A stretch of DNA of 64,000 nt from a virus. Its lineage: Duplodnaviria > Caudoviricetes. Shown here in pieces: positions 4,261 to 62,784 of this stretch. The stretch lies in the IMG/VR virus record IMGVR_UViG_2901201504_000001, positions 73,120 to 137,119 of that record. One strand, written 5' to 3'. How positions within the stretch are numbered: the first letter of the stretch is position 1; every line of letters starts with the position of its first letter. Made by a program: the position numbers and the translations under genes. The notes beneath the pieces were generated by a model that was not told where the DNA came from, made no database searches, and saw only the letters and a list, made by a program, of their open reading frames with translations.

Positions 4261-5237
4261 ATAAATTAATAATGTTAGTTGGTTTACCAGCAAGTGGTAA
4301 AAGCACATTAGCGGAAAAATTATCGAAAGAATATGATGCAGAAATCGTCTCTTCAGATGAAATTAGAAAAGAGTTATTTAATGATATTAATGATCAAACT
4401 AATAATGATACAGTTTTCAATGTAATGCATGAAAGAGTTATTAAACTCCTCAATGCCGACAGAAGTGCTATTTATGATGCAACAAACTTAAATAGAAAGC
4501 GGAGAAAACACTTAATCAATCATGTATTTAAAGCGGATCAAAAGATTGTTTACTACATTAATGAAAGTATTGGAACTGTGTTATGTAGAGACAGTGAACG
4601 TGAAAGAAATGTAGGAGAGAAAATAATAAGTAAAATGTATAAAAATCTTCATATTCCAGTTGAAGGAGAAGGATGGGATAAGGTAATTTACGTTAATTAC
4701 TACAATGATGGGTTGTTGAGATTAAAAAAGCACTATGAAGAAGTTATCACTACTGTACATTCTCATGATGAACTGTTTGGATATCTAACTGCATATATTA
4801 GTGAGTTCAGTGAAATTCTAAATTTACCACAGGATTCTAGCTATCATTCCTTTTCAGTAAGTAGGCATACATATTATGTACATAACTATATTCTAGAGAA
4901 CTATCATAATGAAGATAGATTAATTTTATTATGGGCAAGTTTATTTCATGATATTGGAAAATCATATTGTAAATCATTTACTAACTTTAAGGGAGAAGAA
5001 ACAAAATATGCGAATTTCATAGGACATGAATATGTTTCTTCTCAGATAGCAGCAAAACGATTAGGGATGTTAGGATACGATGAAAACTTTATTAAAAAAA
5101 TTGTAACCTTAGTACAATTCCACATGATGCCGATGAGAGCTAGTGAAAAGAAAATGAATGAAATCAATAGGCTAATTGGAGATGATTTATATGCTAAGTT
5201 AATGATACTTAGTGAAGCAGATACGCAGGCTAAATAA
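4257..5237 (+). CDS. polynucleotide kinase-like P-loop domain fused to HD phosphohydrolase
   Basis: GLPASGKS Walker A, SSDEIR, DATN; HDIG HD motif; overlaps ligase stop. Confidence 0.85.
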   Translation: MNKLIMLVGLPASGKSTLAEKLSKEYDAEIVSSDEIRKELFNDINDQTNNDTVFNVMHERVIKLLNADRSAIYDATNLNRKRRKHLINHVFKADQKIVYYINESIGTVLCRDSERERNVGEKIISKMYKNLHIPVEGEGWDKVIYVNYYNDGLLRLKKHYEEVITTVHSHDELFGYLTAYISEFSEILNLPQDSSYHSFSVSRHTYYVHNYILENYHNEDRLILLWASLFHDIGKSYCKSFTNFKGEETKYANFIGHEYVSSQIAAKRLGMLGYDENFIKKIVTLVQFHMMPMRASEKKMNEINRLIGDDLYAKLMILSEADTQAK

Positions 5238-5266
5238 AAAGTCGATGTTATTAGGAGGTAGGGAAT

Positions 5267-5401
5267 ATGTTTTTATGTGAGAAATGTTTGGATGATAATT
5301 TTAAGAATTTCGCAATACCTTTTAGTCGTGGAAAATGTGAATTCTGTGAAAAAGTTAAAGTATGTGTAGATATTCCAAGTAAGTTTCTAGTGAAGAGATA
5401 G
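5267..5401 (+). CDS. 44-aa Zn-finger microprotein
   Basis: Read directly: MFLCEKC...CEFC; AGGAGG RBS. Confidence 0.6.
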   Translation: MFLCEKCLDDNFKNFAIPFSRGKCEFCEKVKVCVDIPSKFLVKR

Positions 5402-5451
5402 ACACGATTTTATTCTAATTAAGAACGATTATGCGAAGGAATGGTGTGACT

Positions 5452-5640
5452 ATGAGTAGTGAAAGAACGGTGAAAGAATTAAAAGAGGACATCAAACGAG
5501 AAATAGAAGCAACTCGGACTTTAAGAGAAACTGGAAGCGGATTTTACTATGAATATAAAGATTGGCAGTCAAAAAAGGATTGTGAGAGATTAGAGAAATT
5601 ATTAAATGAAATTATCTATTTCGAATGGGAGTATTGTTGA
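5452..5640 (+). CDS. hypothetical protein
   Basis: ORF track; start uncertain. Confidence 0.5.
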   Translation: MSSERTVKELKEDIKREIEATRTLRETGSGFYYEYKDWQSKKDCERLEKLLNEIIYFEWEYC

Positions 5641-5706
5641 GTGATTCTGTCATATAGCGTAGAAACTAAATAAAAGAACAATTTCATTTTAAGGGTGGGG
5701 TGAAAA

Positions 5707-6087
5707 ATGTCAGTTAACGTATTTTGTGATGCATCTGTTAATAATAAAAAGCAAATGGCCGTATTGGGAGCAATAATAAGACATAAAAATGAAATAATAC
5801 ATAAAAACCAATGCGTTGTAGAGAATGTTTCTGGTGGATCGTATCATGGGGAATTATTAGCTATAGAAATGACTGTGAATCTTTTGAAAGAATTGAATAT
5901 GAGCCAAGTTAAAGTATTTACAGATTGTCAAAGTGCAGTTTATAGATTGCGAAACCAGCTAAAGAAAGGTGCAAAACACAGAAAACGCATTGAAAAGATA
6001 AAAGAAAAAGCTAAAGAATTAGAACTTGAATTCCATTGGATTCCAAGAGAGAGAAATAAAACTGTTGATAAATTAACAAGAATATAA
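5707..6087 (+). CDS. RNase H-like protein
   Basis: FCDAS, GELLAI, FTDCQ, WIPRERNKTVD motifs. Confidence 0.85.
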   Translation: MSVNVFCDASVNNKKQMAVLGAIIRHKNEIIHKNQCVVENVSGGSYHGELLAIEMTVNLLKELNMSQVKVFTDCQSAVYRLRNQLKKGAKHRKRIEKIKEKAKELELEFHWIPRERNKTVDKLTRI

Positions 6088-7338: not shown

Positions 7339-8193
7339 GTGACAATGTTAATATCACCAATGTTATTACATACAGCTATAGAACCATTTAATGATGAGAA
7401 CTGGATATTTGAAATTAAATATAACGGTGTTCGTTTGTTATTAGATACAGATGGACATAACCAAACACTATATACTCGACATGGAACTATACTAAATGGT
7501 CGTTTAGCTGAATTAAATAATCTAGAACTACCTAATTGTTTATTAGATGGTGAATTAGTTTGTTTTAACAATAAGGGATTAGAGGACTTTGAAGGAGTGA
7601 TGTCTCGTGTAAATTCTAAAAGTATAAGATCAATCAATAAGGGAGTAGTAAATTTACCAATTACATATGTTGTATTTGATGTATTGAGATTTAAAGGCAA
7701 AAAGATAATGAAGTACGAGCTTATAGATAGAAAAGAAATACTTAATGAACTCTTTGAAGACAGTGAAGTGCTTAGGAAATCTATATCAATCCAATGTGAT
7801 GGAAAACATCTGTTTAGTGAAGTTGAAAAAATCGGACTAGAAGGAATTGTAGCAAAGAAAATCCATTCTAAATATCAACCTGATACACGCTCAAATAATT
7901 GGTTAAAAATAATCAATTGGAGATACTATGAATGTTTTATTGCAGGCTATAAAAAGAATGGAACTGGTTTTCTAATAACATTTGCTGATAGTAATAAGAG
8001 TGCTGGATTATTGGAATTTGGAATGAATCCAATGCAGAAACAGGCTTTCTATGGGGTAGTTGCAGGAATCAAAACAGGTGAAAATAATCAATATGTTTTC
8101 ATTGAACCTGTGATTAAATGCAAAATTAAAGGGAGAGGAGTACTTAAAAGTGGATGCGTTATGACACCAGTGTTTGTTGATTTTATTTTGTAG
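7339..8193 (+). CDS. ATP-dependent DNA ligase (SPbeta LigB-like)
   Basis: EIKYNG motif I, LDGEL, VFDVL, EGIVAK, WLKI. Confidence 0.85.
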   Translation: MTMLISPMLLHTAIEPFNDENWIFEIKYNGVRLLLDTDGHNQTLYTRHGTILNGRLAELNNLELPNCLLDGELVCFNNKGLEDFEGVMSRVNSKSIRSINKGVVNLPITYVVFDVLRFKGKKIMKYELIDRKEILNELFEDSEVLRKSISIQCDGKHLFSEVEKIGLEGIVAKKIHSKYQPDTRSNNWLKIINWRYYECFIAGYKKNGTGFLITFADSNKSAGLLEFGMNPMQKQAFYGVVAGIKTGENNQYVFIEPVIKCKIKGRGVLKSGCVMTPVFVDFIL

Positions 8194-11203: not shown

Positions 11204-11318
11204 ATTAAGATAAAAACTCAATTTTATTTAGATTTACTACATTCAATTACATACGACTAATTAATGATTGTTTACTGATAATCTAGTAAAATATACCTTA
11301 TGAAAGGAGGAGCGATAT

Positions 11319-12269
11319 ATGCAAAAAAAATTACAGGTATTTATATCGTCTACATTTACAGACTTAATTGAGGAAAGGCAGACTGCTGTAGAAGCGGTAC
11401 TAAACGCAGGACATATACCAGCTGGAATGGAATTATTTAAATCAGGTGATAAAAGCCAAAAAGAAGTTATTAAAAAATGGATTGATGAATCTGATGTATA
11501 TATGTTGATTTTAGGTGGCAGATATGGGTCGATTGATGAAGAGACAGGTAAGAGTTATACTCACTGGGAGTATGATTATGCAGGAGAAATAGGTAAACCA
11601 AGATTCGCAATCGTAATAACTGATGAAGCTATGGAAGAAAAGGTTAGAGAACATGGTCAAGACGTTTTGGAGAGAATTAATTATCAAAAGTACATAGAAT
11701 TTAAAGAGCAGGTACTTGGAAAGATTTCGAAATTTTATAGTGATCTTAAAGATATTAAAATTGTCGTTTTAGAGTCATTAAAAGAATTTGAAAAAGATGA
11801 AAACTTAAATGGGTGGGTATCTGGAGCGAATATTAATAATCAACAAGAGTTGTTAACATCAAATTTAAGATTATTAGAAGAGAATGCCTCTCTAAAAAAT
11901 AAATTAGAAGAAGCTTTGAACAAAATTCAAAAATCAAATGAGATTAATGGTTACTCATATGATGAGATATATAAATATTTGTCATTCGAAAAGTTGGAAT
12001 TACCAGAAAAATTATTCCCAGAGTTAGTTGGGAAAAAAGTATCGCTTTTGAAATTATTTCTTGCATTTAAAGATCGATTAGCAATTGGAATAACTAATGA
12101 TGTACACATGACTGATGAAAATAATTTTTACTTTTTTAGTGTAGCCCCAACGCTTATTGCTCTGGGATTATACGAAAAGGTTAAAGTTGCGGGGGTAACC
12201 TATCAAAGAATTCAAACTTCAAAAGATGGTAATAAATTTTTATCTTTATACGAATTGTCAAAAAAATAA
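11319..12269 (+). CDS. DUF4062 domain protein with coiled coil
   Basis: QVFISSTFTDLIEER...GMELF...GGRYGS...YTHWEY signature; own terminator 12271-12293. Confidence 0.85.
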   Translation: MQKKLQVFISSTFTDLIEERQTAVEAVLNAGHIPAGMELFKSGDKSQKEVIKKWIDESDVYMLILGGRYGSIDEETGKSYTHWEYDYAGEIGKPRFAIVITDEAMEEKVREHGQDVLERINYQKYIEFKEQVLGKISKFYSDLKDIKIVVLESLKEFEKDENLNGWVSGANINNQQELLTSNLRLLEENASLKNKLEEALNKIQKSNEINGYSYDEIYKYLSFEKLELPEKLFPELVGKKVSLLKLFLAFKDRLAIGITNDVHMTDENNFYFFSVAPTLIALGLYEKVKVAGVTYQRIQTSKDGNKFLSLYELSKK

Positions 12270-12356
12270 TTAAGGAGGCGAAAGCCTCCTTAATGTTAAT
12301 AATGTCATATTTAGTTAATAAAAGTTAGATTTTAAAGTGAAAGGAAAGTTGAATTA

Positions 12357-12863: not shown

Positions 12864-12901
12864 TTTAAAATCATGGTTTTAATATAAGGAGATGAGATTT
12901 A

Positions 12902-13465: not shown

Positions 13466-14154
13466 TGAAATCCTTATTTTATTAAGAGTGGAGGAAGCTC
13501 ATATTGAATAAATTTAGACGTAGAGCATACGTTAAATCGCTAGATACAGTTAGGAAAGATGGTAAAGAAGGCGACAAAATAATCATTATCAAACCTTCAC
13601 ATACAGAAATAATGCTTGGATATAACATTGGTGACATCTTTACTGTTGGGGTTGAGTTTTCAAAATCAATCAAAACTACATGTGGTCTACACTTGTGGAA
13701 CTATGAATATATAGTTTTAGTTTAATAGATTCTTTATTTTATACAATGGAGGTATTTTATGAATGAAGAATTAAAAGAATTATACAAAATCTTTCTTTGG
13801 ATTTAGATTACGGTTGGGATATTGAAGGAAAGTATTTAACTATTTCAATTAACTATGATGGTGAAACAATTTGTAATGAAAGTGTAATTATAGAAAGAGA
13901 TTGATAAATGTCATATTCTATACAGAGAAATGGGGAATAGCAATGAGAAAAAGAGTTGTATATTTACAAGATAATATGATTAATGATAATGAAATGGTTA
14001 TTTTTTCGGCAGATATTCCATATGTGACAGAAGGAAATTTAATAGTGAATGAGGATAATTTAGCTATACCAATACATGATATTTGGGTAGATTTTAATGT
14101 AGTTTATGAGTATAACTTATAAACGTCTTATTTTATACAGAATGGAGTGAGTTT

Positions 14155-14256: not shown

Positions 14257-14291
14257 GATAAAAGTCGTGATTTATACAATGAGGTGAAAGA

Positions 14292-14576: not shown

Positions 14577-14610
14577 GATAAAATTCACGTTTTATAAGAG
14601 GAGGGATTTA

Positions 14611-14936: not shown

Positions 14937-15199
14937 AAACAAGATAAAAATTATATTTTATACAAGGTGATTATATGAAATGTGCCAGAAGTAGAAACAA
15001 TGAGATGTATCTGAATGGTACAACAATTATTTGATGAGTTACGTAAGAATTATTTCTCACCCTAAATATACACATGAGCAAAGAGTTAAATATAATGAAA
15101 TACTTCTAGCTTGGTATGAGAATTTTAATGGATATTTAGAGGAATATGATTGTTGATAAAAACTAGATTTTATATAAAGGAGTGATGATATGAGTGAAT

Positions 15200-16397: not shown

Positions 16398-16661
16398 ATG
16401 AATTTAACAAAGGTACAAAAAAGAATTAATCTATATCAAGAAAACCCAGTATTTCATGAATTAACTTGTGGTAACAATTCAAAGCATGGGACACTAAAAG
16501 CACAAATTATTGGTGACAAAGTAGTTTTGATTTGTCCTGACTGCGAATACATACAGACTTATATACCAGACTTCTTTTTCAATGATCAATTTGAGATTGA
16601 ATATAATAAACAAAAAGAGTTAATGGATAGAATTAACGAGATACAAAATACAATAAAATAA
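16398..16661 (+). CDS. Zn-ribbon small protein
   Basis: HELTC..H...CPDC. Confidence 0.6.
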   Translation: MNLTKVQKRINLYQENPVFHELTCGNNSKHGTLKAQIIGDKVVLICPDCEYIQTYIPDFFFNDQFEIEYNKQKELMDRINEIQNTIK

Positions 16662-16677
16662 TACTTTTAAACATCTA

Positions 16678-16817: not shown

Positions 16818-17834
16818 ATGGGAGAAGCAAGAAAGTTAAGGGATCATTATATATATGATGATATTATTGCTTTTTTAAATTTAGCTCATTATAGTTATAA
16901 TACAAAATTGTCATATGAAAAAGGAATTAGAGACTTTTTTAGAGAAATTAAAAATAAAGATATTGAGCATCTTACTCAGGATGATATCCCCATAATGAAA
17001 AAAGAGGTGGAATTATTTAGAACACTGTTGAAAGAACGTGGCTATCATAATAATACAATTAATAATAAAGTAGCAGGATTAAGAAGACTATATACTGAAT
17101 TTAAAGCGAATAAATATAATGTTGATGTAGATTTTTTTAGTATTATAAAATCATTACCAAGTGACACAGATTCTTATGATCCTTTTACTATAGATGAAGC
17201 AATGCAATTATATGAGTTAGCTTTAGATGAAAGGCATGATGGTGAGATAAAGTCTAAATTCATTTTGTTTTGCCTGGATACTTGTATAAGAAAAAGTGCT
17301 GCATTAAAACTAAAATGGTCAGATTTCAAGGTTATAAATGAAAAAGAAGTAAGAATAATTGCTATTGATAAAGGTAATAAAGACTTTAGAGCGATGATTC
17401 ATTATGATTTTTATAAAGAATTGTTGGAACTTAAAACTGATTCTGATCTAGTTTTTAATTTGAAACTACCTACTGTAGATAAAATGATATCTAGATTAGT
17501 CACAAAACTAAATGTAGATTCTGAAAGAAACTTAACATTTCACAGTTTAAGAAAAGCAGGAATTGAGTTTAAGTATAGATATACTGGTGATATTAAAGTA
17601 GCACAAAAAGCAGCTAATCACAGTGATTTTTCGTTAACTTTCAATACTTATGTTAGTACTGAAGATTATGGGGTAATGGGAGCTGTATCATTGCTACATA
17701 AAAATGAAGAATCTATCTTAAACCAATTAAACTTTGAAGAATTAAAAAAACTTATGAATAGCCTAGAGCCAGATGTATTTCTAAGAGTGGAAAAGATGGC
17801 TAGAGAAATGTTCTCGAAGTGTTTGAAAGATTAA
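16818..17834 (+). CDS. tyrosine recombinase, YopP/SroD-like
   Basis: full catalytic set: R (DTCIRK), K (DKGNK), HSLR, H (ANHS), Y (FNTY); synteny with yopQ/yopR-like genes. Confidence 0.85.
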   Translation: MGEARKLRDHYIYDDIIAFLNLAHYSYNTKLSYEKGIRDFFREIKNKDIEHLTQDDIPIMKKEVELFRTLLKERGYHNNTINNKVAGLRRLYTEFKANKYNVDVDFFSIIKSLPSDTDSYDPFTIDEAMQLYELALDERHDGEIKSKFILFCLDTCIRKSAALKLKWSDFKVINEKEVRIIAIDKGNKDFRAMIHYDFYKELLELKTDSDLVFNLKLPTVDKMISRLVTKLNVDSERNLTFHSLRKAGIEFKYRYTGDIKVAQKAANHSDFSLTFNTYVSTEDYGVMGAVSLLHKNEESILNQLNFEELKKLMNSLEPDVFLRVEKMAREMFSKCLKD

Positions 17835-17929: not shown

Positions 17930-19270
17930 TTGTATATTGATAGAGAAGAACTTGAAGAGAGATTGACACCTTTCCTTGAACAAGTTAGAAACAATAACCA
18001 TGCAGTGGATTTAATTTCTAAGAAAATGTTAGATTTCAACATCCTTGAAGGAGATACTATAAATTACTTTAATCAACCAGAAACTATCGCTGACATGGAT
18101 TTGAGAGCTTTATGTCTTTTTACAATGTTTGTACAAGAACATGTTAGAGATTCATCTTTAGATATAACTGAAATTTTTACTCCTAATGATATTAAAGAAG
18201 CGAAGCAGTATAATGGAGCATTTGAAATTGAAAAAGAAGAAGATATACTTCCTCTAATAATCGAAGGCGCAGATGCTTTAGATAGTACTACAATTTTGAC
18301 TAAGCTAAATATCCAACAAATCAATAAAATGCTGGATAAAGAGATACTGTATTATGATTTTAATACACAGAGAGAAGCTAAGTGGAAGAGAAAAGGTAGC
18401 ACGATCATTCAAACTCCAAAAATTAACCAAAAATCAGTTAAGGAAATTTCTAAATGCATATTAGATGACACTTTAGTTAAGACAGTCCTAACATTTAATG
18501 CGACTATTGGTAGTAGTGATGAAGAAAATGAATTAATATACAACGAGAAGAAAAGAACAGTTACAATTACTAAAGGAACGAAAATAGCAATTATTGATGG
18601 ATTCCATAGGGTTAAAGGAATTCAAATGGCATTGGCTAAAAATCCACATAAAGAGTTTGTTTTCCCTGTACTATTAACAAATTATTCTGTTGAAAAAGCA
18701 GCTCAATATTTAGGGCAAATTTCTAAAGCAAATCCAATTTCTAAGACTCGTGCTGCTGAATTATTAAAATCAAGAAAAGCTGATGAGGTAGTACAGTATT
18801 TAAAAGAGAGTTCAGAGCTAAAAGGAAGAATTTCTCAAACAGAGAGAATACATTCCATTAATAATGAAATAGTCACTTATAATATTTTAGCTGATACTAT
18901 TGAAAAAGAATTCAAACTAAAAACAAGAATAGATGTAATAAAGGTTGGAAAGTATTTAAGCGAATTCTTTGATATTTTAATGGGCTTGTACAGCGATGCC
19001 TTTATTGATAATGTTGTGGAAACTAAAAATAAATCATTAATTAATGATAACAATATGTTTGTTGGTTATATAGTGCTTGCTAGAAGATTGTACGAGCAAG
19101 ATAAGCCTATTGATATAAATGTAATTGAAGGGATAATGTCTAATATAGATTTTAGCTATGACAATCCACTATGGGAAGAGTTGGCATTAACGAAAGATGG
19201 GAAGAAGAATCATCGTACTCATGTAGTAAGAACAAATATAATGAAATATTTCAATCGATTAGAAATATAA
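17930..19270 (+). CDS. DndB/ParB-like protein, YopQ/SroE-like
   Basis: TQR and IIDGFHR (DGQHR-type) motifs; synteny; TTTACT-17-TACAAT promoter at 17847-17875. Confidence 0.8.
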   Translation: MYIDREELEERLTPFLEQVRNNNHAVDLISKKMLDFNILEGDTINYFNQPETIADMDLRALCLFTMFVQEHVRDSSLDITEIFTPNDIKEAKQYNGAFEIEKEEDILPLIIEGADALDSTTILTKLNIQQINKMLDKEILYYDFNTQREAKWKRKGSTIIQTPKINQKSVKEISKCILDDTLVKTVLTFNATIGSSDEENELIYNEKKRTVTITKGTKIAIIDGFHRVKGIQMALAKNPHKEFVFPVLLTNYSVEKAAQYLGQISKANPISKTRAAELLKSRKADEVVQYLKESSELKGRISQTERIHSINNEIVTYNILADTIEKEFKLKTRIDVIKVGKYLSEFFDILMGLYSDAFIDNVVETKNKSLINDNNMFVGYIVLARRLYEQDKPIDINVIEGIMSNIDFSYDNPLWEELALTKDGKKNHRTHVVRTNIMKYFNRLEI

Positions 19271-19287
19271 AATAATGAGGGATATAT

Positions 19288-20280
19288 ATGAACTTAAGTC
19301 ATTTTGACTTTTATAATAGAGAATTGAAAGAAAAGTTTTTAGAACAATATAATGAAGAAACTGCAAGAACATATGCGTATAGTTTAGCTCGTTCAAGATT
19401 TGAGGAAGAATTGTTTGGGAAAGATTTATATAATTTTAATTTAGAACAAATCTCTAAGATATTACCTAAATTTAAGGCGTGCAATCTAAATGGTGTAAAA
19501 AAACATGCATTAATTATTGATCTATACATGACATGGGCTGCTGAGAATGGTTATAGAAATAGTAATATAAGTGTTTTAAAAGGTATGGATAATGAATTCT
19601 ACGAGCGTTTTGTTATGAACAAGAAGATGTTTATAAATGAAGACGAATTAAAAGAATATGAAGATACGCTTGTGAATTATCAAGATAAGTTAACTTTGAG
19701 ATTACCATATGAAGGTTTGACTGGTTACAAAATGTCCTTGATGAGAAATTTAAACATAAAGTGTTTTACTGACAAACCTAATGTAATTAGATCAAAAGAT
19801 GATAGAAAAGGCGAAAGAGAAATTGAAGTTAGTGACAGATGTATTGAATTTATTAAAAAAGGTATTGCAGAGGATATCTATTATGCTAAAAACGGTGAAT
19901 CTGAAGGATATATTAAAGAATTACCATTGACTAGGAATAACTATGTAATAAGAATTAATGCAAAAAAGAATAAGGAAAATTCAGAAATTGATACACATAA
20001 CCTTCACAGAAGATTGAAAGCTATTAAAGAAGGTATAGATTTACCTGCAATAACATTTAAATCATTGGAGAGATCAGGAATGATTGCGTTTGCAAAAGAT
20101 TTATTTGTTGAAAGAGGAAAATTAGGAAAAGAAGAGTTCAATATTATTGGTGATCGATATGATTTAAGTAAATTACATGCAGGAGGAAAAGAGTATCATA
20201 ATACAACTATGATGAAGACATATATTAACAGGGAAAATATTTTAGAGTTATATGGAATTGACATAGGTGAAAATAATTAA
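19288..20280 (+). CDS. lysogeny master repressor, YopR/MrpR/SroF-like pseudo-recombinase
   Basis: YN..LKEKFL N-terminus, E...GKDLYNF, YEGL, SG motifs; lacks catalytic R and HxxR; synteny. Confidence 0.8.
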   Translation: MNLSHFDFYNRELKEKFLEQYNEETARTYAYSLARSRFEEELFGKDLYNFNLEQISKILPKFKACNLNGVKKHALIIDLYMTWAAENGYRNSNISVLKGMDNEFYERFVMNKKMFINEDELKEYEDTLVNYQDKLTLRLPYEGLTGYKMSLMRNLNIKCFTDKPNVIRSKDDRKGEREIEVSDRCIEFIKKGIAEDIYYAKNGESEGYIKELPLTRNNYVIRINAKKNKENSEIDTHNLHRRLKAIKEGIDLPAITFKSLERSGMIAFAKDLFVERGKLGKEEFNIIGDRYDLSKLHAGGKEYHNTTMMKTYINRENILELYGIDIGENN

Positions 20281-21174: not shown

Positions 21175-21398
21175 AAATAATGAAAGTGATTTAAATTGAT
21201 TTAATAATAGCCCGTTGGGTAGTAAGGAAACTGACGGGTCTATTATTAGAAATTTTTGAAAAATAAGCTTTACAAATGAATTAACATAATGTAACATTAT
21301 AAATGTAGATAAAAAGGTTGTTTAAATCACAAACAAAAGTTAAATAACATAAAATAATAAAAATCACATTTTATTAGAAGTTAAGGGGAGGGAATAAC

Positions 21399-22624: not shown

Positions 22625-22678
22625 TAAAAGTGGAGTTTTATTTTAAAAATAAATTAATAGATAAAAGGGGATTTAGTA

Positions 22679-23317: not shown

Positions 23318-23770
23318 CTACATAATTGTAATACCTAAAGTATAACAAAATTAGCGTGCTCTTTGAATAAGAGTAGAGGGATTGTTTATACGAGAAATTA
23401 ACGTCAGAAGATACTTAAAGTATTTCATTCAAATTAAAAGACGAATTTTAAAGGAAGTTAAAACAAATATACTATGGTAGTAATAAAAGAAAAACAAATA
23501 ATTCGAATAAGTGTCACTAATTGTAATAATAATGTGCCATATCTCCTATTACAATAGTAATATACAAGAATAAGGAGATAGTAAATATGAAAATTTCACA
23601 GTGGTTAGAAGACTATGCTGGTATATCTATTATCAAATTAAGAAAAATGAGATTATCAAATGAGGAGTGGCAGATAATTTGCGAAGAGTATGAAAAATAT
23701 TGTGAATCTAAAAATATTAAACCTGATTATGATAGGTAAAGAATAAAATTTTAAACAAAGGGGATGAATT

Positions 23771-24647: not shown

Positions 24648-24836
24648 ATGGACAAAAATAATTTTGACTTAGATAAAATTAAAGCTGCCGCAGATGAATT
24701 AGGAATTGAACTTACTGTTAATTCAGATAATCCTGGCATTCATTTTATGTCTGAAGAAGGAGAGATTTTACACAGTCTAAGTTGTGATCGATTTGAAGAG
24801 CTAGTAGAAGAGGTATTTGGATTTAAATTTAAATAA
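24648..24836 (+). CDS. hypothetical protein
   Basis: GGAGG RBS before ATG 24648. Confidence 0.55.
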   Translation: MDKNNFDLDKIKAAADELGIELTVNSDNPGIHFMSEEGEILHSLSCDRFEELVEEVFGFKFK

Positions 24837-24867
24837 AATGTGTCTTTTAATGGGAGATGGATTGTAA

Positions 24868-25215
24868 TTGATTAAGGAATTTGATTCAAATTTTTATAAT
24901 AAATACCCTAGAGTTTACACAACAGCAGAAAGTTACGGATTTAATATTAATGACATTGATTACTTTATAAACACTATACATGAAAAATTACATTTGAATA
25001 CACATTTCAAGTCAAAAGAGATGTTACAAGTGTATTTAAAAGCTTTAATAGTTAGATTAGATATGAGAAAAGATGAGTTTTGTAAATATGTATTTGAACT
25101 GTCTAAGAAACAGACCAAGCATAATGAATTAGATTTCAGGGATAAAGTAGGTGCTTATCAATCTTACATACTGTGGGCATTAATCGAAGATATAAATGAT
25201 AAACGAATAAAATAG
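24868..25215 (+). CDS. hypothetical protein
   Basis: ORF track. Confidence 0.55.
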   Translation: MIKEFDSNFYNKYPRVYTTAESYGFNINDIDYFINTIHEKLHLNTHFKSKEMLQVYLKALIVRLDMRKDEFCKYVFELSKKQTKHNELDFRDKVGAYQSYILWALIEDINDKRIK

Positions 25216-25274
25216 TTGTTTTATAACCTTTAAAAATGAATTAATACATAAAAATAATTATAAGGAGAGATAAT

Positions 25275-25892: not shown

Positions 25893-25952
25893 AAAATAAA
25901 ACAAAATTAATATAAAAGTTAAATTTCATTCGGTATATTAGGAGGAATACAT

Positions 25953-27666: not shown

Positions 27667-27724
27667 CAACTAATAAAACTTAGGTTTTAATTGAAATAAA
27701 TTAATATGAAAAGGGGGTAATAAT

Positions 27725-27979: not shown

Positions 27980-28030
27980 TATAAAATTTGGTTTTTATCG
28001 AAAAATAATAAATTAATATTGGAGGAATTA

Positions 28031-28432
28031 ATGTTGAGAAAGATTAAGTTTAGAGCATGGGAACCTTGTAATAAGAAAATGTACTATTTAGATTTGGCAT
28101 TATATAAGTTTAACCCTAACAGTATAAATAGTCATAGCTTTGTATTACCGCCTGAAAGACAGGGGCTGCATAATGCATATACATCAATGAATTTAGATGC
28201 AGTAGAGGTAATGCAATATACGGGATTAAAAGACAAGAATGGTAAGGATATTTATGAAGGAGATTTATTAAAAGATGATTCAGGCATTGGTTGTGTCACA
28301 TGGGTTCAGGAACATTGTGCATTCCTGATATTTGTCTCAGATCAAGCGAGATATTATTTACTAGAATCCGATGGACAATTGATTAGTTCTGAAGTTATCG
28401 GGAACGTATTTGAAAAACCAGAGTTAAAGTAA
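28031..28432 (+). CDS. YopX family protein
   Basis: IKFRAW...MQYTGLKDKNGKDIYEGD...EVIGNVFE. Confidence 0.9.
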   Translation: MLRKIKFRAWEPCNKKMYYLDLALYKFNPNSINSHSFVLPPERQGLHNAYTSMNLDAVEVMQYTGLKDKNGKDIYEGDLLKDDSGIGCVTWVQEHCAFLIFVSDQARYYLLESDGQLISSEVIGNVFEKPELK

Positions 28433-28575
28433 AATTACCATTTTATTTAGTAGTTAAGAGGATATATAGTATATTAGATTTATGAAAAATTAGAGTCTAA
28501 GGGGTAAAAAATGGAAAAATATTATTTGATAAGACAATTACTGTTGCAGCTACAACAACGATAATAACATTTTTA

Positions 28576-28995: not shown

Positions 28996-29349
28996 GAAAT
29001 AGAGGTGTGGATTATTAATTTAATCTCACACCTTATAAAGATAAATTAATATAAAATAATGTTTTTATTTGAAGAAAAAGGAGGAATTTAAGTTGCATAA
29101 ATATTTTATATCTTACGTTTTTAGTATTGGACATCCTAATCACGGATTCGGAAATATAGAGACGAAATATGGTAAAGAAATTGAATCTATGGATGATATT
29201 AATTTAATCAGTAGAAGCATTGAAAGAGATACTAGGCTTAAAGAAAACTCATTAGTTATCTTACATTATATCAAATTAAACTAATGTTACGGTTCGGTTT
29301 ATGAAAATACCTAATAAGATAAAATAAAAGGATACTTTTATAAAAGGGT

Positions 29350-43929: not shown

Positions 43930-45717
43930 TTGAGGAAAGTATTTTATGACTTTGAGGTTTTTAGTAAAAGCATTGATCCGGTTACAGGAAGAAGTTTTTG
44001 GCTAGTTGTTCTAATTGATTATGATTCACAAAAAGGAAAAGTGATTATCAATGATGTTAATGAATTAAAGAAATATTATAATTATTTCAAAAATGATGTT
44101 TTCATCGGTTACAACAGTAGAATGTACGATCAATACATATTCAAAGGATTATTATTAGGGATGGACGCTGGATACATAAACGATAAATTAATTAATGAAG
44201 GCAGAAAAGGCCATGAAGTTGTGAGGGATGCATTTAAAATTCCATTTAATAATTTTGATGTTACAACTGGATTCCATAGCTTGAAACAGCTTGAAGCTTT
44301 CATGGGTAGTAGAATCAAGGAATCTTCTGTTCCTTTTGATATTGAAAGACCTTTAACAAAAAATGAGATTAAAGAAACCGTTGATTATTGTATACATGAT
44401 GTTAAAGAAACAATTAATGTTTTTGATAATCGAATAGAGGAATTTGAAAGTCAATTAGCTTTAATAGAAGCATTTGATTTAGATATGAAGCAATTTAATA
44501 AAACTAAAGCTCAACTTTCAGCATTTATTATTGGAGCAGAAAAGAAGCCGGATAGAAAAGATGAATTTAATTTATGTTTTCCAGATACATTACAAGTAGA
44601 AAAATATAAAGATATTGTTGAATGGTATAAGAATCCAGAAAATATGGATTATAAGCAAAAACTAAAAGTTGAAGTAGCTGGTGTTCCACATATCTTTGCT
44701 TGGGGTGGTATTCATGGAGCCATTCCAAAATATAAAGATGAAGGAATTATATTATGTGCGGATGTGGCTTCGCTTTATCCGAGCTTAATGATTGAATATG
44801 GATACATAAGTAGAAACGTAAGAGAACCTTCAAAATTTAAAGAGATACGTGATAAGCGATTGGAATTAAAGAAACAAAAAGATCCTAGACAATTGCCAAT
44901 GAAAATCGTTATAAATGCAAACTATGGTGCAATGAAAGATAAGTTTAATCCATTATATGATCCATTAATGAGTAATAATGTGTGTCTAGCTGGACAATTG
45001 TTATTACTAGATTTGATTGAAAAATTAGAACCATATTGCAAGCTGGTACAATCCAATACAGACGGTGTGTTTTTAAAAGTTGAGAAAGAATCTGATATAA
45101 AAATTATTAAAGAAGTTGCTGCTGAATGGGAACATAGAACACGTTTGGATTTAGAATGGGAAGTATTCAATAAGATTTATCAAAAGGATGTTAATAACTA
45201 CATAATTATTGATGAAAACGGAAAGTACAAATCAAAAGGAGCTTATGTAAAAAAGTTAACCAACTTAGATTATGACTTGCCAATTGTCAACAAAGCTTTG
45301 ATTAATTATTTTACTAAAGATATCCCATTAGAACAAACGATTAATGAATGTGATGAATTACGTGAATTTCAGAAAGTAGTAAAGATTTCTTCTAAATATG
45401 AGTATGGAACTCATGGAGATGAAAAAGTAAAAGAGAAAGTACTTCGTGTATTTGCTGATAATAGAGATACTTCTCAAGGAGTATTTAAGCATAAATGGAA
45501 GACTAATAAAGAAGGAGAAACTAATTTAGTAGCTGAGAAGATTGGTAATACTCCAGAAAAATGCTTTATTGATAATGGAGATATCCAGGGGAAATTAATA
45601 CCAGATTATTTAGATAAACAGTATTATATTGATCTTGCTCAAAAGAGACTAAATGACTTCTTAGGCATTAAAGCACCTAGAAAGAAGAAAGTTAAAGAAA
45701 AAACAGACGTCAAATAA
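43930..45717 (+). CDS. family B-like DNA polymerase with 3'-5' exonuclease
   Basis: YDFE, GYN..YD, YC.HD exo motifs; DVASLYPS, KIVINANYG, SNTDG polymerase motifs. Confidence 0.88.
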   Translation: MRKVFYDFEVFSKSIDPVTGRSFWLVVLIDYDSQKGKVIINDVNELKKYYNYFKNDVFIGYNSRMYDQYIFKGLLLGMDAGYINDKLINEGRKGHEVVRDAFKIPFNNFDVTTGFHSLKQLEAFMGSRIKESSVPFDIERPLTKNEIKETVDYCIHDVKETINVFDNRIEEFESQLALIEAFDLDMKQFNKTKAQLSAFIIGAEKKPDRKDEFNLCFPDTLQVEKYKDIVEWYKNPENMDYKQKLKVEVAGVPHIFAWGGIHGAIPKYKDEGIILCADVASLYPSLMIEYGYISRNVREPSKFKEIRDKRLELKKQKDPRQLPMKIVINANYGAMKDKFNPLYDPLMSNNVCLAGQLLLLDLIEKLEPYCKLVQSNTDGVFLKVEKESDIKIIKEVAAEWEHRTRLDLEWEVFNKIYQKDVNNYIIIDENGKYKSKGAYVKKLTNLDYDLPIVNKALINYFTKDIPLEQTINECDELREFQKVVKISSKYEYGTHGDEKVKEKVLRVFADNRDTSQGVFKHKWKTNKEGETNLVAEKIGNTPEKCFIDNGDIQGKLIPDYLDKQYYIDLAQKRLNDFLGIKAPRKKKVKEKTDVK

Positions 45718-46185
45718 AAGAATAGTTTTATTGTAAAAATAGGCTCTGAAAAGCCTTATATATCAACGTTTCTGGGAGGTGAATTTATGAAAATAATCAC
45801 AAAAGACAATTTTTGTAGAGATTTATTCACTGAAACTGTTATTGCTGAAAATGTAAACAAATACATTGGAGAAGAAATGGTAAAGCTATGGAACGATAAG
45901 TTTTGGAGTAGTCAATCTGATTACTATCTAGCATTAGTCGAAGATGATTATGAATTATATGACGGTTATGCTGATTTAGTTTGATAGAGTAGTAACTTAA
46001 AAACAATACTGGAGGTGATTATTATTAAAATCAAATTACAAGATAGACAAGACATTACTAAACACTTACGTCATCAAGGGTTTACTCGTAGAGATATTGA
46101 AAGTAGAATGAATCCATTATTAGGAGTTTAATTGATAGAAAGAATATACGAGGAGTGTGATGAGAGCCTAAATCAATAGGCTTAT

Positions 46186-47569: not shown

Positions 47570-47981
47570 AAGGAGAGAATATATGAGATATATAAGTTAT
47601 TTCTTTGCTGGATGGTTTCTATTGTACGGAATGTTGATGGCTTTCTCAGTTGTACCTATTGATAAATTCTTTATTGGATGCATGTCTGTAATTTGCTGCT
47701 TAAGTTTTATTGATGATTCCAAAATTAATTTAAAGGGGAAATTTTAATGACTAAGTTAGAAGATTTAATGAATCAATTTTATTATACAGGAAAGCTATCA
47801 ATAGACGAGCAAATTGATATTAATAATGGTTTACCAAAAGATGATTGTATAAACGAATATGAGAAGTTCTTCCGTTGGTTGAATACGCAATTGTAAGGAA
47901 ATAAAATGGAGAGTTTATTGGGACATCTAATGCATGAATTAATATAAAATATAGGTTTTATTTGAAAAGGAGATTGATAGT

Positions 47982-50049: not shown

Positions 50050-50239
50050 AAGCTGGTTCATCCAGCTTCTAAAATATAATAAAAGTAAATTAATATAAAA
50101 CTTACGGATATATGTATGTGGTTTACTTAAATTGTTTATCAATATGTAGTATATAAGACAAAATAAAAGTTACATTTTATTTATTAAGGGAATGGTGAAT
50201 AAATAAAAAAGAGAGTGACTATTAATCACTCTCAGGAAA

Positions 50240-50911: not shown

Positions 50912-51026
50912 TATTAATCATCCCTCTCTTATTCTAATTATAGCATATTGTCATTTTATAATTGAGAAGGAAATAAAATCAGGTTTTTAATCAAAAAAAA
51001 GAGTGAAGGTTAATCACTCTTGAGGT

Positions 51027-51710: not shown

Positions 51711-51895
51711 ATCAACCCTCTCTTTTAATAAGTATAACATACTAATTAGCTATCTTAGAATAACGGATGAAATAGGGCTATTAAATAGAAGGGAATATAA
51801 ATGAAACAAAGAATGAGAAGTAAAAATATTGAATGAGGCAAACATAATAAAATCTATCTTTTATGGGGTAAAAAAAGAAGCCCTACAAGGCTTCC

Positions 51896-53704: not shown

Positions 53705-54317
53705 TGTTTGTAAAGAATATAATCCAGACATAAACCATGTTGTTAGAATTTCAGATGATAAAAATTACCATGAGATTAATGGTCATGAAGATTGTATTAA
53801 TAAATTGCACACTAAACTCAAATCATTAGACATTGATAAGCTAAGTGTAGACAAGGTTATCAAGTTAATAAAAATTAATTAAATTAAAATAAAATACAGT
53901 TTTTATTAAGGGGTGTATGAGATGAATTTGAAATTAAGGTTGAAGACTCAAGACATTATCAAGTTATTATTTGGAAGGAGTTTCCTGATAAAGGATCAAT
54001 ATAATAATTTAATTTATCGAGTTCAGAAAGGTCATGATACATATATTACAAAACAATAAAGCAAAGGAGGAGAAATGATGCCTAGCTATAATGATACTGA
54101 AATAAATAAAGAAGAGTTTGAGTCATTTATAAGTGCTGAAAGCTGTTATCAAATCGGTGTGCCAATTGCAGATAGAGTAAATTATCATTCGAATGAAACG
54201 GATGTGATAATAGCTTATAAATGTTTTGGTGGCTTAAATGGAAAATACCATGAATCTTATTACATTAGAACATACAAATAAAACGCAGCTTTTATTAATT
54301 GAAACGGAGGTTTTACA

Positions 54318-54488: not shown

Positions 54489-54955
54489 TAAAATTCACTT
54501 TTTAAATGGTCTTAAATAGAAAGGAGAGTCACATATGAGCAATTTAAAAAAGTTTCTAGAAGAGTTGGATTTATTATCAAGAAAACACGGTGTTTGGATT
54601 GACACTAGTCAGATATCTGAATCAGTAGATTTAATTGATGAAGACTTGCGTGTAATTGCAGGTGGTCTGTATTGTGATGATGATACTCAGGAATATCTAG
54701 TAAAGGAAGAATTTTAAATCAATAATGTTATCCGACAAACTCTAGGGGGGTGATCTTATGAAGCCAATGAAGAGTATCAAGGTTAAATACCATTCCTACA
54801 TGAGAGATTTCTATTCAAAAGAAAATTATTTTCATAATGATATGAAAGTCATTTACCATGATATGAGATTACAAAGGCTTAGGAGTAATTAGTTCATAAC
54901 TCAAACAAAACAAACAATAACATCTTAGAATCGACACCAACTAACTTATAGGGGT

Positions 54956-61523: not shown

Positions 61524-62011
61524 CAATTAGTATGGTTGCTGCAATTGGTTTAGATAAAAGTTTAGGAGCTAATAACCAACTACTATGGAAACTTAAATCA
61601 GACTTAGAGAAGTTTCGTGAACGTACCTTATTTCAAAATGTTGTAATGGGAAGTAATACATATAGCTCAATCGGTAAGCCATTAGATAAAAGAAATAACA
61701 TCGTACTTAGTCGTAATAAGGATTTGGAAGTTGCTGAAGGAGTAATTGTATATGATTCTGTTTCTAAGTTATTACAAGATTATCAAAATAAAGATTTATA
61801 TATCATCGGAGGAGAGCAAATTTACAAACAGTTTCTTCCGTTTACTGACCGTATTTACTTAACAATTGTTGAAGGAACGTTTCCACAAGCTGATACTTTC
61901 TTTCCACCATTACCGCAAGAATGGAAATGTACTAGCAAGTATCAACGATTGAAGGATAAAGATAACGAATATGATCATTGGTATTGTGTTTATGAGAAAG
62001 TGAACGCTTAA
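61520..62011 (+). CDS. dfrA: dihydrofolate reductase
   Basis: LLW..KSDL..F, VVMG, PL..RNNIVLS, IIGGEQIY, ADTFFP. Confidence 0.92.
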   Translation: MTISMVAAIGLDKSLGANNQLLWKLKSDLEKFRERTLFQNVVMGSNTYSSIGKPLDKRNNIVLSRNKDLEVAEGVIVYDSVSKLLQDYQNKDLYIIGGEQIYKQFLPFTDRIYLTIVEGTFPQADTFFPPLPQEWKCTSKYQRLKDKDNEYDHWYCVYEKVNA

Positions 62012-62280
62012 TAGTTCAAGTTATACTATGTTCAAAATTCAAAATAGTTAATAAATAAATGGTTATTAAGGAGACGATTCAATGAATAACTTTAGTAGAT
62101 ATGGCTCGTATACTTTTGCTTTACTGGCTTGTATCGCATACATATTAGATAGTTTTATAGGTGTGGTTTTTACAAGTTCCTTTATGTTAGTTAATAAATT
62201 GAATGAAATACAGGATGATTTAAAGAAATAAAATAGTGGTTTTAATTGAAAAAAAATAATTATGAAAAGAGGAATTTATA

Positions 62281-62559
62281 ATGACGAAATTTGAAATGGA
62301 TTTTAGTGGTATTGACAAATTACAGGAAAATTTAGAGCAAATAGATGAAGTTAATGGCATCCTATTAATTGAATTATTAGGGGAGGAACTGTTTGAGAAA
62401 ATAACGAGTAATTTTAGTGTAGAAACTGAGGAAGATTTTAATAGACTTTCTGAAAATGAATTGGATAAATATATTTCAAATATCACAGATTACAAGACAT
62501 ACCAAGAACTTCTTGAAGAAAAATATGCAGAATATATACTAAAAAAATTGTTTAGTTAA
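62281..62559 (+). CDS. acidic hypothetical protein
   Basis: ORF between two exact palindromic sites. Confidence 0.6.
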   Translation: MTKFEMDFSGIDKLQENLEQIDEVNGILLIELLGEELFEKITSNFSVETEEDFNRLSENELDKYISNITDYKTYQELLEEKYAEYILKKLFS

Positions 62560-62590
62560 TAATAAAACCGTACTTTTATATTAAACAACA

Positions 62591-62720
62591 AAAACCAGTC
62601 TATAATCGACTGGTTTCCTTAAGAGGAGATTTATTTGAAAAGGTTTAACCTTGTTCTTTTATGATAATTCACAAATATTAAGAAACTATTAACAAAATTA
62701 AAATGAACTATTAAACTTTT
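62591..62720 (-). ncRNA. putative sRNA unit, copy 2
   Basis: ORF-less unit between sites 62563 and 62740; homologous to 29350-29484. Confidence 0.45.
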
Positions 62721-62784
62721 ATTCAGATAAGAAGATTAATAAAACATATCTTTTAAAAGTAAATTAATAAAAAGGTGGTTGTTT

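Follow-up and report, generated by a model that had tools for sequence, protein, structure and literature searches.

A 16-bp palindrome with position-specific centres lies between exchangeable gene units of SPbeta-like phages and may mark addresses for cassette exchange

INTRODUCTION

How phages swap genes and yet keep them in working order is a long-standing question of the modular theory of phage evolution, in which module boundaries are usually ascribed either to joints that arose by chance and passed selection or to homology within conserved regulatory sequences. The question is posed here by a 64,000-nt stretch of viral DNA, referred to throughout as the window (bases 73120 to 137119 of the 137,119-bp IMG/VR provirus record IMGVR_UViG_2901201504_000001, here G000; G+C content, 30%), in which copies of the 16-bp palindrome TAAAA-N6-TTTTA lie between accessory genes. 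The window comes from an SPbeta-like temperate phage or prophage; it encodes an AimR protein, and the Pfam domains of its operon at 16818 to 20280 show the yopP-yopQ-yopR (sroD-sroE-sroF) arrangement of SPbeta. A first-pass annotation, made from the sequence of the window alone, had proposed that the palindromes belong to an integron-like system in which a recombinase captures, excises, and shuffles one-gene cassettes. It had also presumed the motif undescribed, and our literature search, whose scope did not take in the 1999 SPbeta genome paper and supplementary data, likewise found no description of TAAAA-N6-TTTTA.

With respect to DNA-level relatives, megablast of positions 10000 to 34000 of the window gave no match in the INPHARED phage collection, in which the best matches to the MrpR protein of the window have at most 38% identity, and a query with the single MrpR protein found no related loci. 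Between G000 and all other genomes compared here, megablast homology is absent except for 2 to 3 kb with G014 and G002. Genes were delimited with a crude, uncurated caller of open reading frames (ORFs) and ribosome binding sites (RBSs), and all junction counts given below depend on these calls.

RESULTS AND DISCUSSION

The palindrome is enriched at a single spacer length and between genes

We observe 33 exact copies of TAAAA-N6-TTTTA in the window, compared with a mean of 1.90 in 100 dinucleotide-preserving shuffles (maximum, 7; none of the 100 reaches 33), a background that agrees with the earlier estimate of about 2 chance hits per 64 kb. All 30 exact starts listed by the first-pass annotation are among the 33, and those at 58, 11756, and 29429 had been missed. 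The enrichment is confined to a spacer of 6, as had been stated, with only 0 to 6 copies at every other spacer from 0 to 14, and controls with swapped or reversed arms yield at most 7 copies in the window. Across the whole record, 48 exact copies compare with 3 for the reversed pattern.

The excess lies in intergenic DNA. Relative to AT-matched intergenic Markov models of order 1 and 3, the whole record holds 35 fully intergenic exact copies where 1.2 to 1.7 are expected, and the window holds 23 where 0.5 is expected, which bears out the intergenic enrichment anticipated at the outset. Coding DNA of the window shows no excess (1 exact copy, with 1.1 expected), and 44 of the 48 copies in the record lie outside the gene calls, although 82% of the record is coding. 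Since about 1.1 copies are expected in coding DNA, the single match inside an ORF, at 11756, is probably due to chance.

Degenerate copies are a mixed class. Nineteen one-mismatch copies lie between genes in the window, about 2-fold more than the roughly 10.5 expected, and copies with at most one mismatch number 74 window-wide, with 35.1 expected; chance may thus account for about half of the degenerate copies, and, because the class is only about twice as frequent as chance predicts, each one-mismatch copy is individually uncertain. Of the 21 near-exact copies reported earlier, 19 do have a single arm mismatch, and two (13726 and 13905) have two. The degenerate copies at 13726, 14259, and 25913 nevertheless coincide with homology joints, as described below for the lineage of the window.

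The palindrome extends by one base on each side in the G000 record, with A at position -1 in 34 of 38 sites and T at position +16 in 28 of 38, and the six central positions carry almost no information across sites. In the SPbeta lineage the consensus is the longer palindrome TYTNRA-TAAAA-N6-TTTTA-TYNARA, which has an 11-6-11 layout. No 16-mer is duplicated within the G000 record, in keeping with the earlier observation that every exact copy has its own spacer, and the same is true of each of the 20 genomes examined, G000 included. Palindromic spacers are absent from the 264 distinct centres (about 4 expected).

Sites delimit units of one or two genes

An exact site is present at 29 of the 112 gene junctions in the window, and an exact or one-mismatch site at 51. 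Outside the core blocks these figures are 28 and 48 of 89 junctions, and the earlier claim that most accessory junctions carry a site was accordingly somewhat overstated. The core blocks had been described as free of internal sites; this holds for 20 of their 23 internal junctions, and the remaining three carry one each, at 58 (exact), 17824 (one mismatch, between the yopP- and yopQ-like genes), and 59245 (one mismatch).

The units so delimited comprise one or two genes. The left arm provides the stop codon of the upstream gene at the five places named beforehand (24834, 28430, 29730, 45715, and 54279) and also at 58 and 62229, and about half of the exact sites lie directly 3' of a stop codon and 17 to 40 nt 5' of the next start. 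Sites have the same form beside minus-strand genes and between divergent genes, and the orientation independence seen in the first-pass annotation is thus upheld. The three antisense units that it described as bracketed are indeed bracketed; terminator-like hairpins, which it had assigned to each, accompany two of the three.

Two of these minus-strand genes, at 50240 to 50911 and 51027 to 51740, are adjacent paralogs that share a 300-nt repeat (D1; 77% identity), each with its own terminator-like hairpin, and they are separated or flanked by the sites at 50164, 50974, and 51848, all with different centres. The pair resembles the product of a cassette duplication, with sites that diverged or were separately acquired. 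In the stretch from 49900 to 52900, to which this analysis was applied, promoter-like matches are not in excess (12, with 19.1 expected) and the terminator-like hairpins are adjacent to the sites and outside them; the 16-mer itself is too short to hold a promoter and a terminator together.

The same palindrome occurs in SPbeta and in Bacillus cereus-group phages

In an unbiased scan of SPbeta for gapped palindromes, TAAAA-N6-TTTTA ranks first (34 copies; background, 1.8), and ATACA-N7-TGTAT occurs 6 times. The SPbeta copies have the same anatomy as those in the window: 9 supply a TAA stop codon to the upstream gene, and most lie 19 to 35 nt ahead of the next start. Most MrpR-encoding relatives are enriched for the motif, with 30 to 61 copies per whole record in G002, G005, G007, G009, G017, G020, G021, G022, and G025, and it is weakly enriched or not enriched in G014 to G016, G018, G019, G024, and G026. 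The motif is unchanged among phages whose MrpR proteins are only 25 to 40% identical to that of the window.

G000 has 6 identical 16-mers in common with each of G017 and G020, with which it has no megablast homology. By a rough estimate about 1 to 3 would be expected by chance, and this sharing may mean nothing.

Gene replacement between relatives ends at the outer edges of the sites

We compared all pairs of nine complete SPbeta-type genomes, pooling the junction counts, which are consequently not independent of each other. Relative to the site centre, 83 homology blocks start at -10 to -8 and 79 stop at +7 to +9, and only about 20 block ends fall between -7 and +6. As BLAST scoring would not cross an unrelated spacer, the whole 16-mer, including its centre, belongs to the conserved side, whichever side that is. 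A breakpoint is found at 305 of 385 site-bearing junctions, compared with 489 of 1,275 site-free ones. A set of 704 non-motif identity islands was assembled for comparison with 97 motif islands and was not used as a control, diverged coding DNA with indels giving such islands too.

The centres are tied to genome positions. By an alignment-free count the nine genomes contain 66 distinct 16-mers, 55 of which recur in at least two genomes, and 28 of these 55 occur in two or more unrelated contexts on the upstream side and likewise on the downstream side; one site, TAAAAAGACTGTTTTA, is found with 5 upstream and 6 downstream contexts. For 209 pairs of distinct sequence segments, the 16-mer matches exactly although neither flank is related, and beyond its ends the identity drops to background in about 6 bp. 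The six bases on either side follow the lineage consensus (TYTNRA on the left, TYNARA on the right).

Similar patterns are seen in a second, independent lineage of B. cereus-type phages (G017, G020, G021, and G025; about 34% G+C), in which 33 to 36 of 50 to 57 16-mers are identical although only 56 to 77 kb can be aligned, and 37 of their 16-mers have swaps on both sides. Common 16-mers are perfectly collinear in all 36 SPbeta-type genome pairs and in all 6 pairs of the second lineage. In many SPbeta-type pairs, for example SPbeta and phi3T, all common 16-mers but one have the same relative orientation (22 of 23 in this example), and the centre of one site seems to be inverted between SPbeta-type genomes.

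Within long homologous blocks, which were not selected for identity, the arms differ least (SPbeta lineage, 0.4% and 1.5% mismatch; B. cereus-type lineage, 0.5%), followed by the spacers (27 of 642, or 4.2%, and 7 of 228, or 3.1%, respectively) and the flanks (about 7.5%, 603 of 8,132, and 10.8%, 311 of 2,888). The arms thus change 5 to 20 times more slowly than the mostly coding flanks.

Replacements in the lineage of the window

A public sequencing run of the same organism from another study (X2) was compared with positions 11001 to 31000, using joints and matching pieces and leaving gaps in depth aside. X2 holds 52% of the sampled words of 21300 to 31000, and one X2 contig of 26,453 bases matches 11001 to 31000 in pieces parted by nine joints, all of them replacements. 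An MrpR 99% identical to that of the window (P0001) is encoded on a 26,453-base contig, probably this same one.

Eight of the nine ends at which homology resumes lie 1 to 9 bp upstream of a site start, and six of the nine ends at which it stops lie within -2 to +8 of a site end, with a chance expectation of about 1.6 to 1.8% per end. The replaced segments hold 1 to 2 ORFs each. Two of them are given with their sites in Table 1; another runs from 25245 to 25908 (662 bp replaced by 1,367), one extends from 28445 to 29051 between the sites at 28430 and 29052, and one, from 29786 to 30495, is not at a site. At four places only an island of 22 to 40 bases around a site is common to both elements (14254 to 14279, 14571 to 14592, 25206 to 25245, and 29051 to 29075). 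These results concern the positions of the joints. Taken with the SPbeta-type and B. cereus-type comparisons, they bear out the expectation that gene replacement between relatives would end at the sites.

A second run, X1, is possibly the source sample and hence not independent. Two of its contigs (23,158 and 16,040 bases) match the window only over 22 to 73 bases, at or beside sites (25896 to 25918, 29044 to 29073, 24053 to 24074, and 30790 to 30862), and one contig links 25918 to 29044 through 364 other bases. A second element with the same kind of sites may be present in this host.

Table 1. Palindromic sites in the window and genes named in the text (window coordinates unless stated otherwise; a dot denotes a site without strand)
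Feature	Position	Strand	Observation
Exact site TAAAAGATTGCTTTTA	58..73	.	TAA is stop codon of upstream ORF
Exact site	11211..11226	.	Intergenic
Exact match	11756..11771	.	Inside ORF 11319-12269; probably chance copy
Exact site	12319..12334	.	Intergenic
Exact site	12866..12881	.	3 nt past stop, 21 nt ahead of next start
Exact site	14579..14594	.	Common to X2 only over 22-nt island 14571-14592
Exact site	14945..14960	.	X2 homology restarts at 14936, 9 nt upstream
Exact site	15157..15172	.	Intergenic
Exact site	16654..16669	.	Overlaps end of ORF 16398-16661, 5' of yopP-like gene
Exact site	21358..21373	.	X2 homology ends at 21375; 1246 bp, up to 22622, replaced by 911 other bases
Exact site	22625..22640	.	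X2 homology restarts at 22622
Exact site	23435..23450	.	Between divergent genes
Exact site	24834..24849	.	TAA is stop codon; X2 homology ends exactly at 24849; 356 bp, up to 25206, replaced by 1011
Exact site	25208..25223	.	Common to X2 only over island 25206-25245
Exact site	27674..27689	.	Intergenic
Exact site	27982..27997	.	Intergenic
Exact site	28430..28445	.	TAA is stop codon; X2 homology ends exactly at 28445
Exact site	29052..29067	.	Common to X2 only over island 29051-29075
Exact site	29325..29340	.	X2 homology restarts at 29322
Exact match, status uncertain	29429..29444	.	Within 61-nt repeat D8
Exact site	29730..29745	.	TAA is stop codon; X2 joint 41 nt downstream at 29786, off site
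Exact site	33725..33740	.	17 nt ahead of next start
Exact site	45715..45730	.	TAA is stop codon of last replication-block gene
Exact site	47945..47960	.	Intergenic
Exact site	50164..50179	.	Flanks minus-strand gene 50240-50911
Exact site	50974..50989	.	Between two paralogous minus-strand genes
Exact site	51848..51863	.	Between minus-strand genes
Exact site	53890..53905	.	Intergenic
Exact site	54279..54294	.	TAA is stop codon
Exact site	54489..54504	.	Intergenic
Exact site	62229..62244	.	TAA is stop codon
Exact site	62563..62578	.	Intergenic
Exact site	62740..62755	.	30 nt ahead of next start
One-mismatch site	14259..14274	.	Common to X2 only over 26-nt island 14254-14279
One-mismatch site	25913..25928	.	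X2 homology restarts at 25908
Two-mismatch copy	13726..13741	.	X2 homology ends at 13730, the end of the left arm
Other one-mismatch copies, not fully in ORF (23 starts)	3116, 5235, 5671, 6826, 8570, 8959, 9088, 10597, 10964, 13466, 14120, 17824, 21310, 24032, 24620, 32611, 35016, 35999, 37258, 47902, 48724, 54300, 59245		Each uncertain; about half expected by chance
YopP/SroD-like integrase-family protein, candidate recombinase	16818..17834	+	Pfam Phage_integrase and SAM-like; Cre alignment
YopQ/SroE-like protein, candidate DNA-binding partner	17930..19270	+	DndB domain (Pfam)
MrpR/YopR/SroF-family repressor	19288..20280	+	Both MrpR Pfam domains
YomM homologue, Cre-like integrase family	G000 25576-26574, outside the window	-	In virion structural block; SPbeta yomM at L002 40301-41302
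LigB-like ATP-dependent DNA ligase	7339..8193	+	
AimR	718-1881		Pfam

The sites may be addressed crossover joints

The layout of the sites is that of tyrosine-recombinase core sites, with inverted arms, a strict N6 spacer, and, in the SPbeta lineage, the palindrome extended to 11-6-11. Three observations are consistent with a requirement for identical centres: palindromic spacers are absent, sites with swapped flanks have identical centres, and the spacer is more conserved than the flanks. We tentatively favor the interpretation, drawn from these sequence comparisons, that the 16-mers may be addressed crossover joints at which strands are exchanged between matching centres, most simply by a tyrosine recombinase. 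It would account for the strict N6, the unique and asymmetric centres, the conservation of the centres, the collinearity, and the positions of the joints.

In mechanistic terms, the 16-mers would be duplex-DNA sites for a symmetric, probably dimeric, phage protein, placed between independently exchangeable gene units. The arms, (A)TAAAA and TTTTA(T), would form the common recognition element, and the six central bases, different at each genome position, would form the address. When two related phages or prophages share a cell, recombination would occur between sites with the same centre, a single crossover exchanging everything to one side and two events swapping one cassette, as in recombinase-mediated cassette exchange with heterospecific lox or FRT sites. 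If only like addresses pair, gene order and genome size would be kept, and the roughly 30 to 60 sites in a genome would not delete or invert the DNA between them. The enzyme would be a phage tyrosine recombinase that needs central identity, with the YopP-like protein (16818 to 17834) and the Cre-like YomM, encoded outside the window, as candidates. We infer, then, that the sites would be points of strand exchange, that a dedicated recombinase would be at work, and that one of these proteins may fill the role. The broader proposal, that SPbeta-like phages carry a natural, genome-wide cassette-exchange system in which a YopP/SroD-like protein or YomM swaps single genes at matching, mutually incompatible addresses, is one that we would entertain with greater reserve.

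Candidate proteins

In alignment with P1 Cre, the YopP-like protein keeps the equivalents of R173, H289, R292, and Y324 and has His at the position of W315, the Lys column being ambiguous. Only the general Phage_integrase and SAM-like domains are detected in it by Pfam, and it has no solved structural relative at an E value of 0.001 or lower. YomM is unusually conserved, at 58 to 65% identity across lineages and hosts; in a structure search SPbeta YomM matches Cre weakly (best E value, 0.0017), and YomM-like proteins keep R, E, K, H, H, and a Tyr. We know of no function described for YomM. The third candidate, the YopQ/SroE-like protein, would be the second repressor; a role of SroD and SroE as repressors is discussed in a 2025 preprint. 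The products of 16818 and 19288 had both been put forward as possible DNA-binding proteins for the sites, and of these the former has its catalytic residues intact, and the latter is the catalytically dead repressor MrpR, as characterized in PMC10516654.

In presence/absence profiling, no G000 or SPbeta protein is present in all motif-rich genomes and absent from motif-poor ones. The only gene specific to motif-rich genomes is that of the LigB-like ligase (6 of 7 complete motif-rich and 0 of 3 motif-poor genomes), a pattern that may be a clade effect. YonO was considered as a partner and rejected, its identity of 50 to 59% in genomes with high motif density, compared with 24 to 25% or absence elsewhere, being read as a clade effect as well; YonO is reported to initiate the late operon from a single promoter, which precedes yonK (PMC5467207). 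YopP homologues also lie more than 10 kb from MrpR, where a search limited to 10 kb missed them.

Observations that weigh against addressed crossover

A number of our observations count against this interpretation. With respect to the proteins, profiling links none to the sites, and the YopP-like protein, YomM, and YopQ are candidates only: YopP-, YopQ-, and MrpR-like genes occur in motif-rich and motif-poor genomes alike, and YomM likewise does not track motif density. SPbeta's own YopP (yopP, L003 28691 to 29767) has Lys at the position of Cre R292, where the protein of the window and 10 other homologues examined have Arg, and SPbeta may carry a weakened version of YopP; most YomM homologues have Lys at the second catalytic Arg. 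With respect to the sites, strong conservation covers only 5 to 6 bp per arm, which is short for a tyrosine-recombinase arm, and the outer six bases evolve like the flanks and differ between lineages. The missing spacer duplicates are not significant by themselves, about 2 duplicates being expected over independent lineages by our estimate. Only about 16% of SPbeta homology-block ends (34 of 215) fall at a site. Furthermore, the strong conservation of some 30 to 60 sites per genome suggests a first-order function, such as regulation, and not evolvability alone.

Laboratory hybrids of phi3Ts and SPbeta point the same way. We painted three of them by parent (Hyb1, Hyb2, and bases 1 to 120,000 of the 127,428-base Hyb3), with phi3T (KY030782) in place of phi3Ts, and all 7 crossover intervals (5 distinct) lie within tracts of parental identity of 39 bp to 13 kb; in none of the three hybrids can a crossover be placed at a site. 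Several of these tracts are bounded by sites, which merely restates that sites bound homology blocks. This is in line with the work by Dragos et al., who report 15 of 16 hybrid junctions in homologous regions and one "non-homologous" junction near yosA (bioRxiv 10.1101/2020.05.06.055103); the latter junction is absent from the hybrid sequence that we painted. Homologous recombination in long common blocks is the demonstrated route by which SPbeta-like phages hybridize. It does not account for the joining of unrelated cassettes right at the edges of sites whose centres are kept.

Alternative roles for the palindrome

The strongest rival to addressed crossover, possible although we consider it doubtful, is that the palindrome is the binding site of a conserved regulatory or architectural phage protein and that its part in exchange is passive. 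Candidate roles are those of a stoperator-like roadblock, of an insulator, and of a target of YopQ/SroE as the second repressor, and the site would then be the sole island of identity between diverged cassettes, at which general or phage homologous recombination and selection set the boundaries. Such a role fits the arms kept across host genera, the single site between stop codon and RBS at many junctions, the recombination of the laboratory hybrids within long identical tracts, and the lack of pairing covariation described below, which is what a dimer site on duplex DNA would be expected to show. The promoter-early stem-loops (PeSLs) of T4-type phages set a precedent for regulatory repeats that mediate shuffling (PMC2839356). 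However, an island of 16 to 18 bp is very short for homologous recombination, and three features are left unexplained by a passive role: the spacer is more conserved than the coding flanks, palindromic spacers are absent, and joints cluster at both outer edges and are scarce in the interior, no matter which flank is conserved. Nor is a regulator known at the site, the MrpR/SroF operator being different and 15 to 24 bp long.

A very improbable explanation, in our judgment, is the integron-like one of the first-pass annotation, in which one-gene cassettes are captured, cut out, and moved among different sites by a recombinase that tolerates differing spacers. Much of the description behind it stands: the sites delimit units, replacements occur at them, single genes are bracketed whatever their orientation, tandem paralogous minus-strand genes are parted by sites with different spacers, and the window has an integrase-family gene with intact catalytic residues. 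The behavior of the sites is nevertheless that of fixed positions, with common sites collinear in 42 of 42 genome pairs and no sign of cassettes changing address. Breakpoints had been predicted within the 6-bp spacer and lie instead at the outer edges of the 16-mer; genes had been predicted to travel with their spacers, and instead the same 16-mer is found with several unrelated neighbors; tolerance of spacer heterology had been assumed, and the centres are identical between sites that appear exchanged. Since the spacer stays with its position, it looks like an address and not like tolerated heterology. Neither attC-like structural covariation nor an attI/Pc platform is seen, and nothing in the comparisons points to excision circles or to capture.

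We give equally little credence to the palindrome being an RNA element, that is, a hairpin between cistrons for processing, stability, or antitermination, with the boundary pattern secondary. The placement of about half of the exact sites, directly after a stop codon and shortly before the next start, is what such an element would show, and 2 of the 34 SPbeta sites overlap annotated "stem_loop" features. Against this, sites have the same form beside minus-strand genes and between divergent genes, and the motif, being perfectly palindromic as DNA, carries no strand information. By our estimate a stem with five or six A-U pairs would be weak, and Watson-Crick covariation is absent from the outer positions (five site sets, z ≤ 1.3 for each of the 10 pairs). 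The lack of pairing covariation argues against a hairpin in either RNA or single-stranded DNA, and thus against an attC-like site, and for a symmetric protein on duplex DNA.

Finally, the motif could be the operator of the MrpR/YopR/SroF repressor encoded at 19288 to 20280. MrpR/YopR is described as a repressor with a tyrosine-recombinase fold that has lost catalysis and binds the repeated intergenic SPBRE element of SPbeta (PMC10516654), and SroF/MrpR of phi3T is reported to bind a 24-bp operator as a monomer (bioRxiv 10.1101/2025.11.27.690993). We derived SPBRE from the ten target promoters of chromatin affinity purification sequencing (ChAP-seq) that are named in PMC10516654; it approximates ATACAAATAATATGTAT, lies upstream of 9 of the 10 target genes, overlaps a -10-like box, and differs from TAAAA-N6-TTTTA. 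Despite the likeness of a repeated element and a recombinase-fold protein, we find this the least credible explanation of all, as the two sequences are different, SPbeta carries 34 copies of TAAAA-N6-TTTTA as well, the motif is constant while MrpR diverges, and SroF binds its operator as a monomer. The caution voiced at the outset, that the motif might be only a repressor operator, does not apply to the known one.

Comparison with known systems

The closest published systems appear to us, by analogy, to be the dif modules of Acinetobacter plasmids and the PeSL cassettes of T4-type phages, and the logic seems most like engineered heterospecific lox/FRT exchange. Relative to these, the new feature would be a phage-family motif with dozens of position-specific, collinear centres.

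The pdif sites of Acinetobacter plasmids have an 11-6-11 layout. Like the palindromes, they are numerous short recombinase-type sites of accessory regions; they flank discrete adaptive modules, and the same module recurs from one replicon to another (Mindlin et al. 2019, PMC6449649). They are similar to the dif site of the host chromosome and presumably rely on the XerC/XerD proteins of the host (PMC6449649), whereas the arms described here are a phage-family motif. Moreover, the present sites have their own conserved centres in a fixed order, which points to exchange of like with like and not to modules moving between contexts.

As in the present phages, a short repeat, the PeSL, lies between non-essential small genes of T4-type phages, and insertions, deletions, and replacements between close relatives end at it (Arbiol et al. 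2010, PMC2839356). PeSLs differ in being promoter-plus-terminator units with a shown regulatory function, which recombine by homology, also within a genome to give mini-circles (PMC2839356). The present element is a palindrome of 16 to 28 bp with a unique centre per position, and we see no sign of exchange between positions. Comeau et al. 2014 reportedly also concerns PeSL cassettes of T4-type phages.

Heterospecific lox and FRT sites have common inverted arms and centres that must match, different centres do not cross-react, and a doubly flanked cassette is swapped. They differ from the present sites in being an engineered use of Cre or Flp with 13-bp arms and 8-bp centres, whereas here we would have a natural array of dozens of addresses with 5 to 6 bp of strongly conserved arm and a candidate enzyme only. 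In cluster A mycobacteriophages, two to three dozen stoperators, short repressor sites, lie in short intergenic gaps; they are asymmetric, oriented with transcription, and of one sequence. The likeness lies in dozens of short sites in intergenic gaps across a temperate phage genome; unlike the present sites, all stoperator copies are alike and asymmetric, and neither a position-specific centre nor a role at module boundaries is known for them.

Integrons resemble the window in having mostly single, often promoterless genes parted by imperfect palindromes, with a tyrosine-recombinase gene nearby. An attC site, however, is long and conserved in structure and recombines as a folded single strand, and cassettes are excised and inserted at attI. 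Here we see no pairing covariation and no platform, the order is fixed, the spacer is tied to position, the conserved part is sequence (the arms), and the integrase-family gene sits in a repressor operon.

The SPBRE/MrpR system shares with the present sites the phage family, in which each is a repeated intergenic element, and it shares with the YopP-like candidate an operon, that of 16818 to 20280, in which MrpR is encoded. It differs in having about 10 bound promoter sites (PMC10516654), as against 30 to 60 junction sites here, in its sequence, and in its monomeric mode of binding. An operator should also covary with its repressor, whereas the present motif is constant.

Other repeats and genes of the window

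A second short motif, TAAATTAAT, occurs 28 times in the window (8.7 expected), with 23 copies on the plus strand, for example at 12856, 22650, 27697, 28009, 29042, 47557, 50086, and 62760. It often adjoins the palindrome or sits just 5' of an RBS. Because it is strand biased, unlike the palindrome, it may be a transcription or translation signal.

A 61-nt repeat, D8 (75% identity), is found at 29423 to 29483 and 62659 to 62719, each copy upstream of a small gene and with CTATTAA words repeated inside it. Of the two copies, only the first contains the exact palindrome at 29429. D8 might be this phage's counterpart of the MrpR operator.

An RNA ligase gene (RNA_lig_T4_1; 3343 to 4260) overlaps the next gene (4257 to 5237), which encodes a P-loop kinase fused to an HD phosphohydrolase. 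The pair has the make-up of an RNA repair system (healing and sealing), as deployed by phages against tRNA-cleaving defences.

Implications for the evolution of SPbeta-like phages

A defined 16-bp element with a position-specific centre marks module boundaries in SPbeta, in B. cereus-group phages, and in the low-GC prophage studied here. The regions between sites house anti-defence and other accessory genes, such as Gad1 and Gad2, annotated in the variable early region of SPbetaL phages, and, since such genes reside between sites, the sites would help to explain how anti-defence genes spread. The question is directly testable by standard Bacillus genetics. Should the motif be a regulatory landmark, about 34 sites in SPbeta would be bound by a factor that has gone unrecognized. 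Should a recombinase act at the sites, the phages would offer a ready-made set of dozens of orthogonal recombination sites. If addressed crossover is true, it would reconcile very high turnover of accessory genes with a perfectly kept gene order, and it would provide a built-in mechanism for modular phage evolution, a system overlooked in a model phage that has been studied for 50 years.

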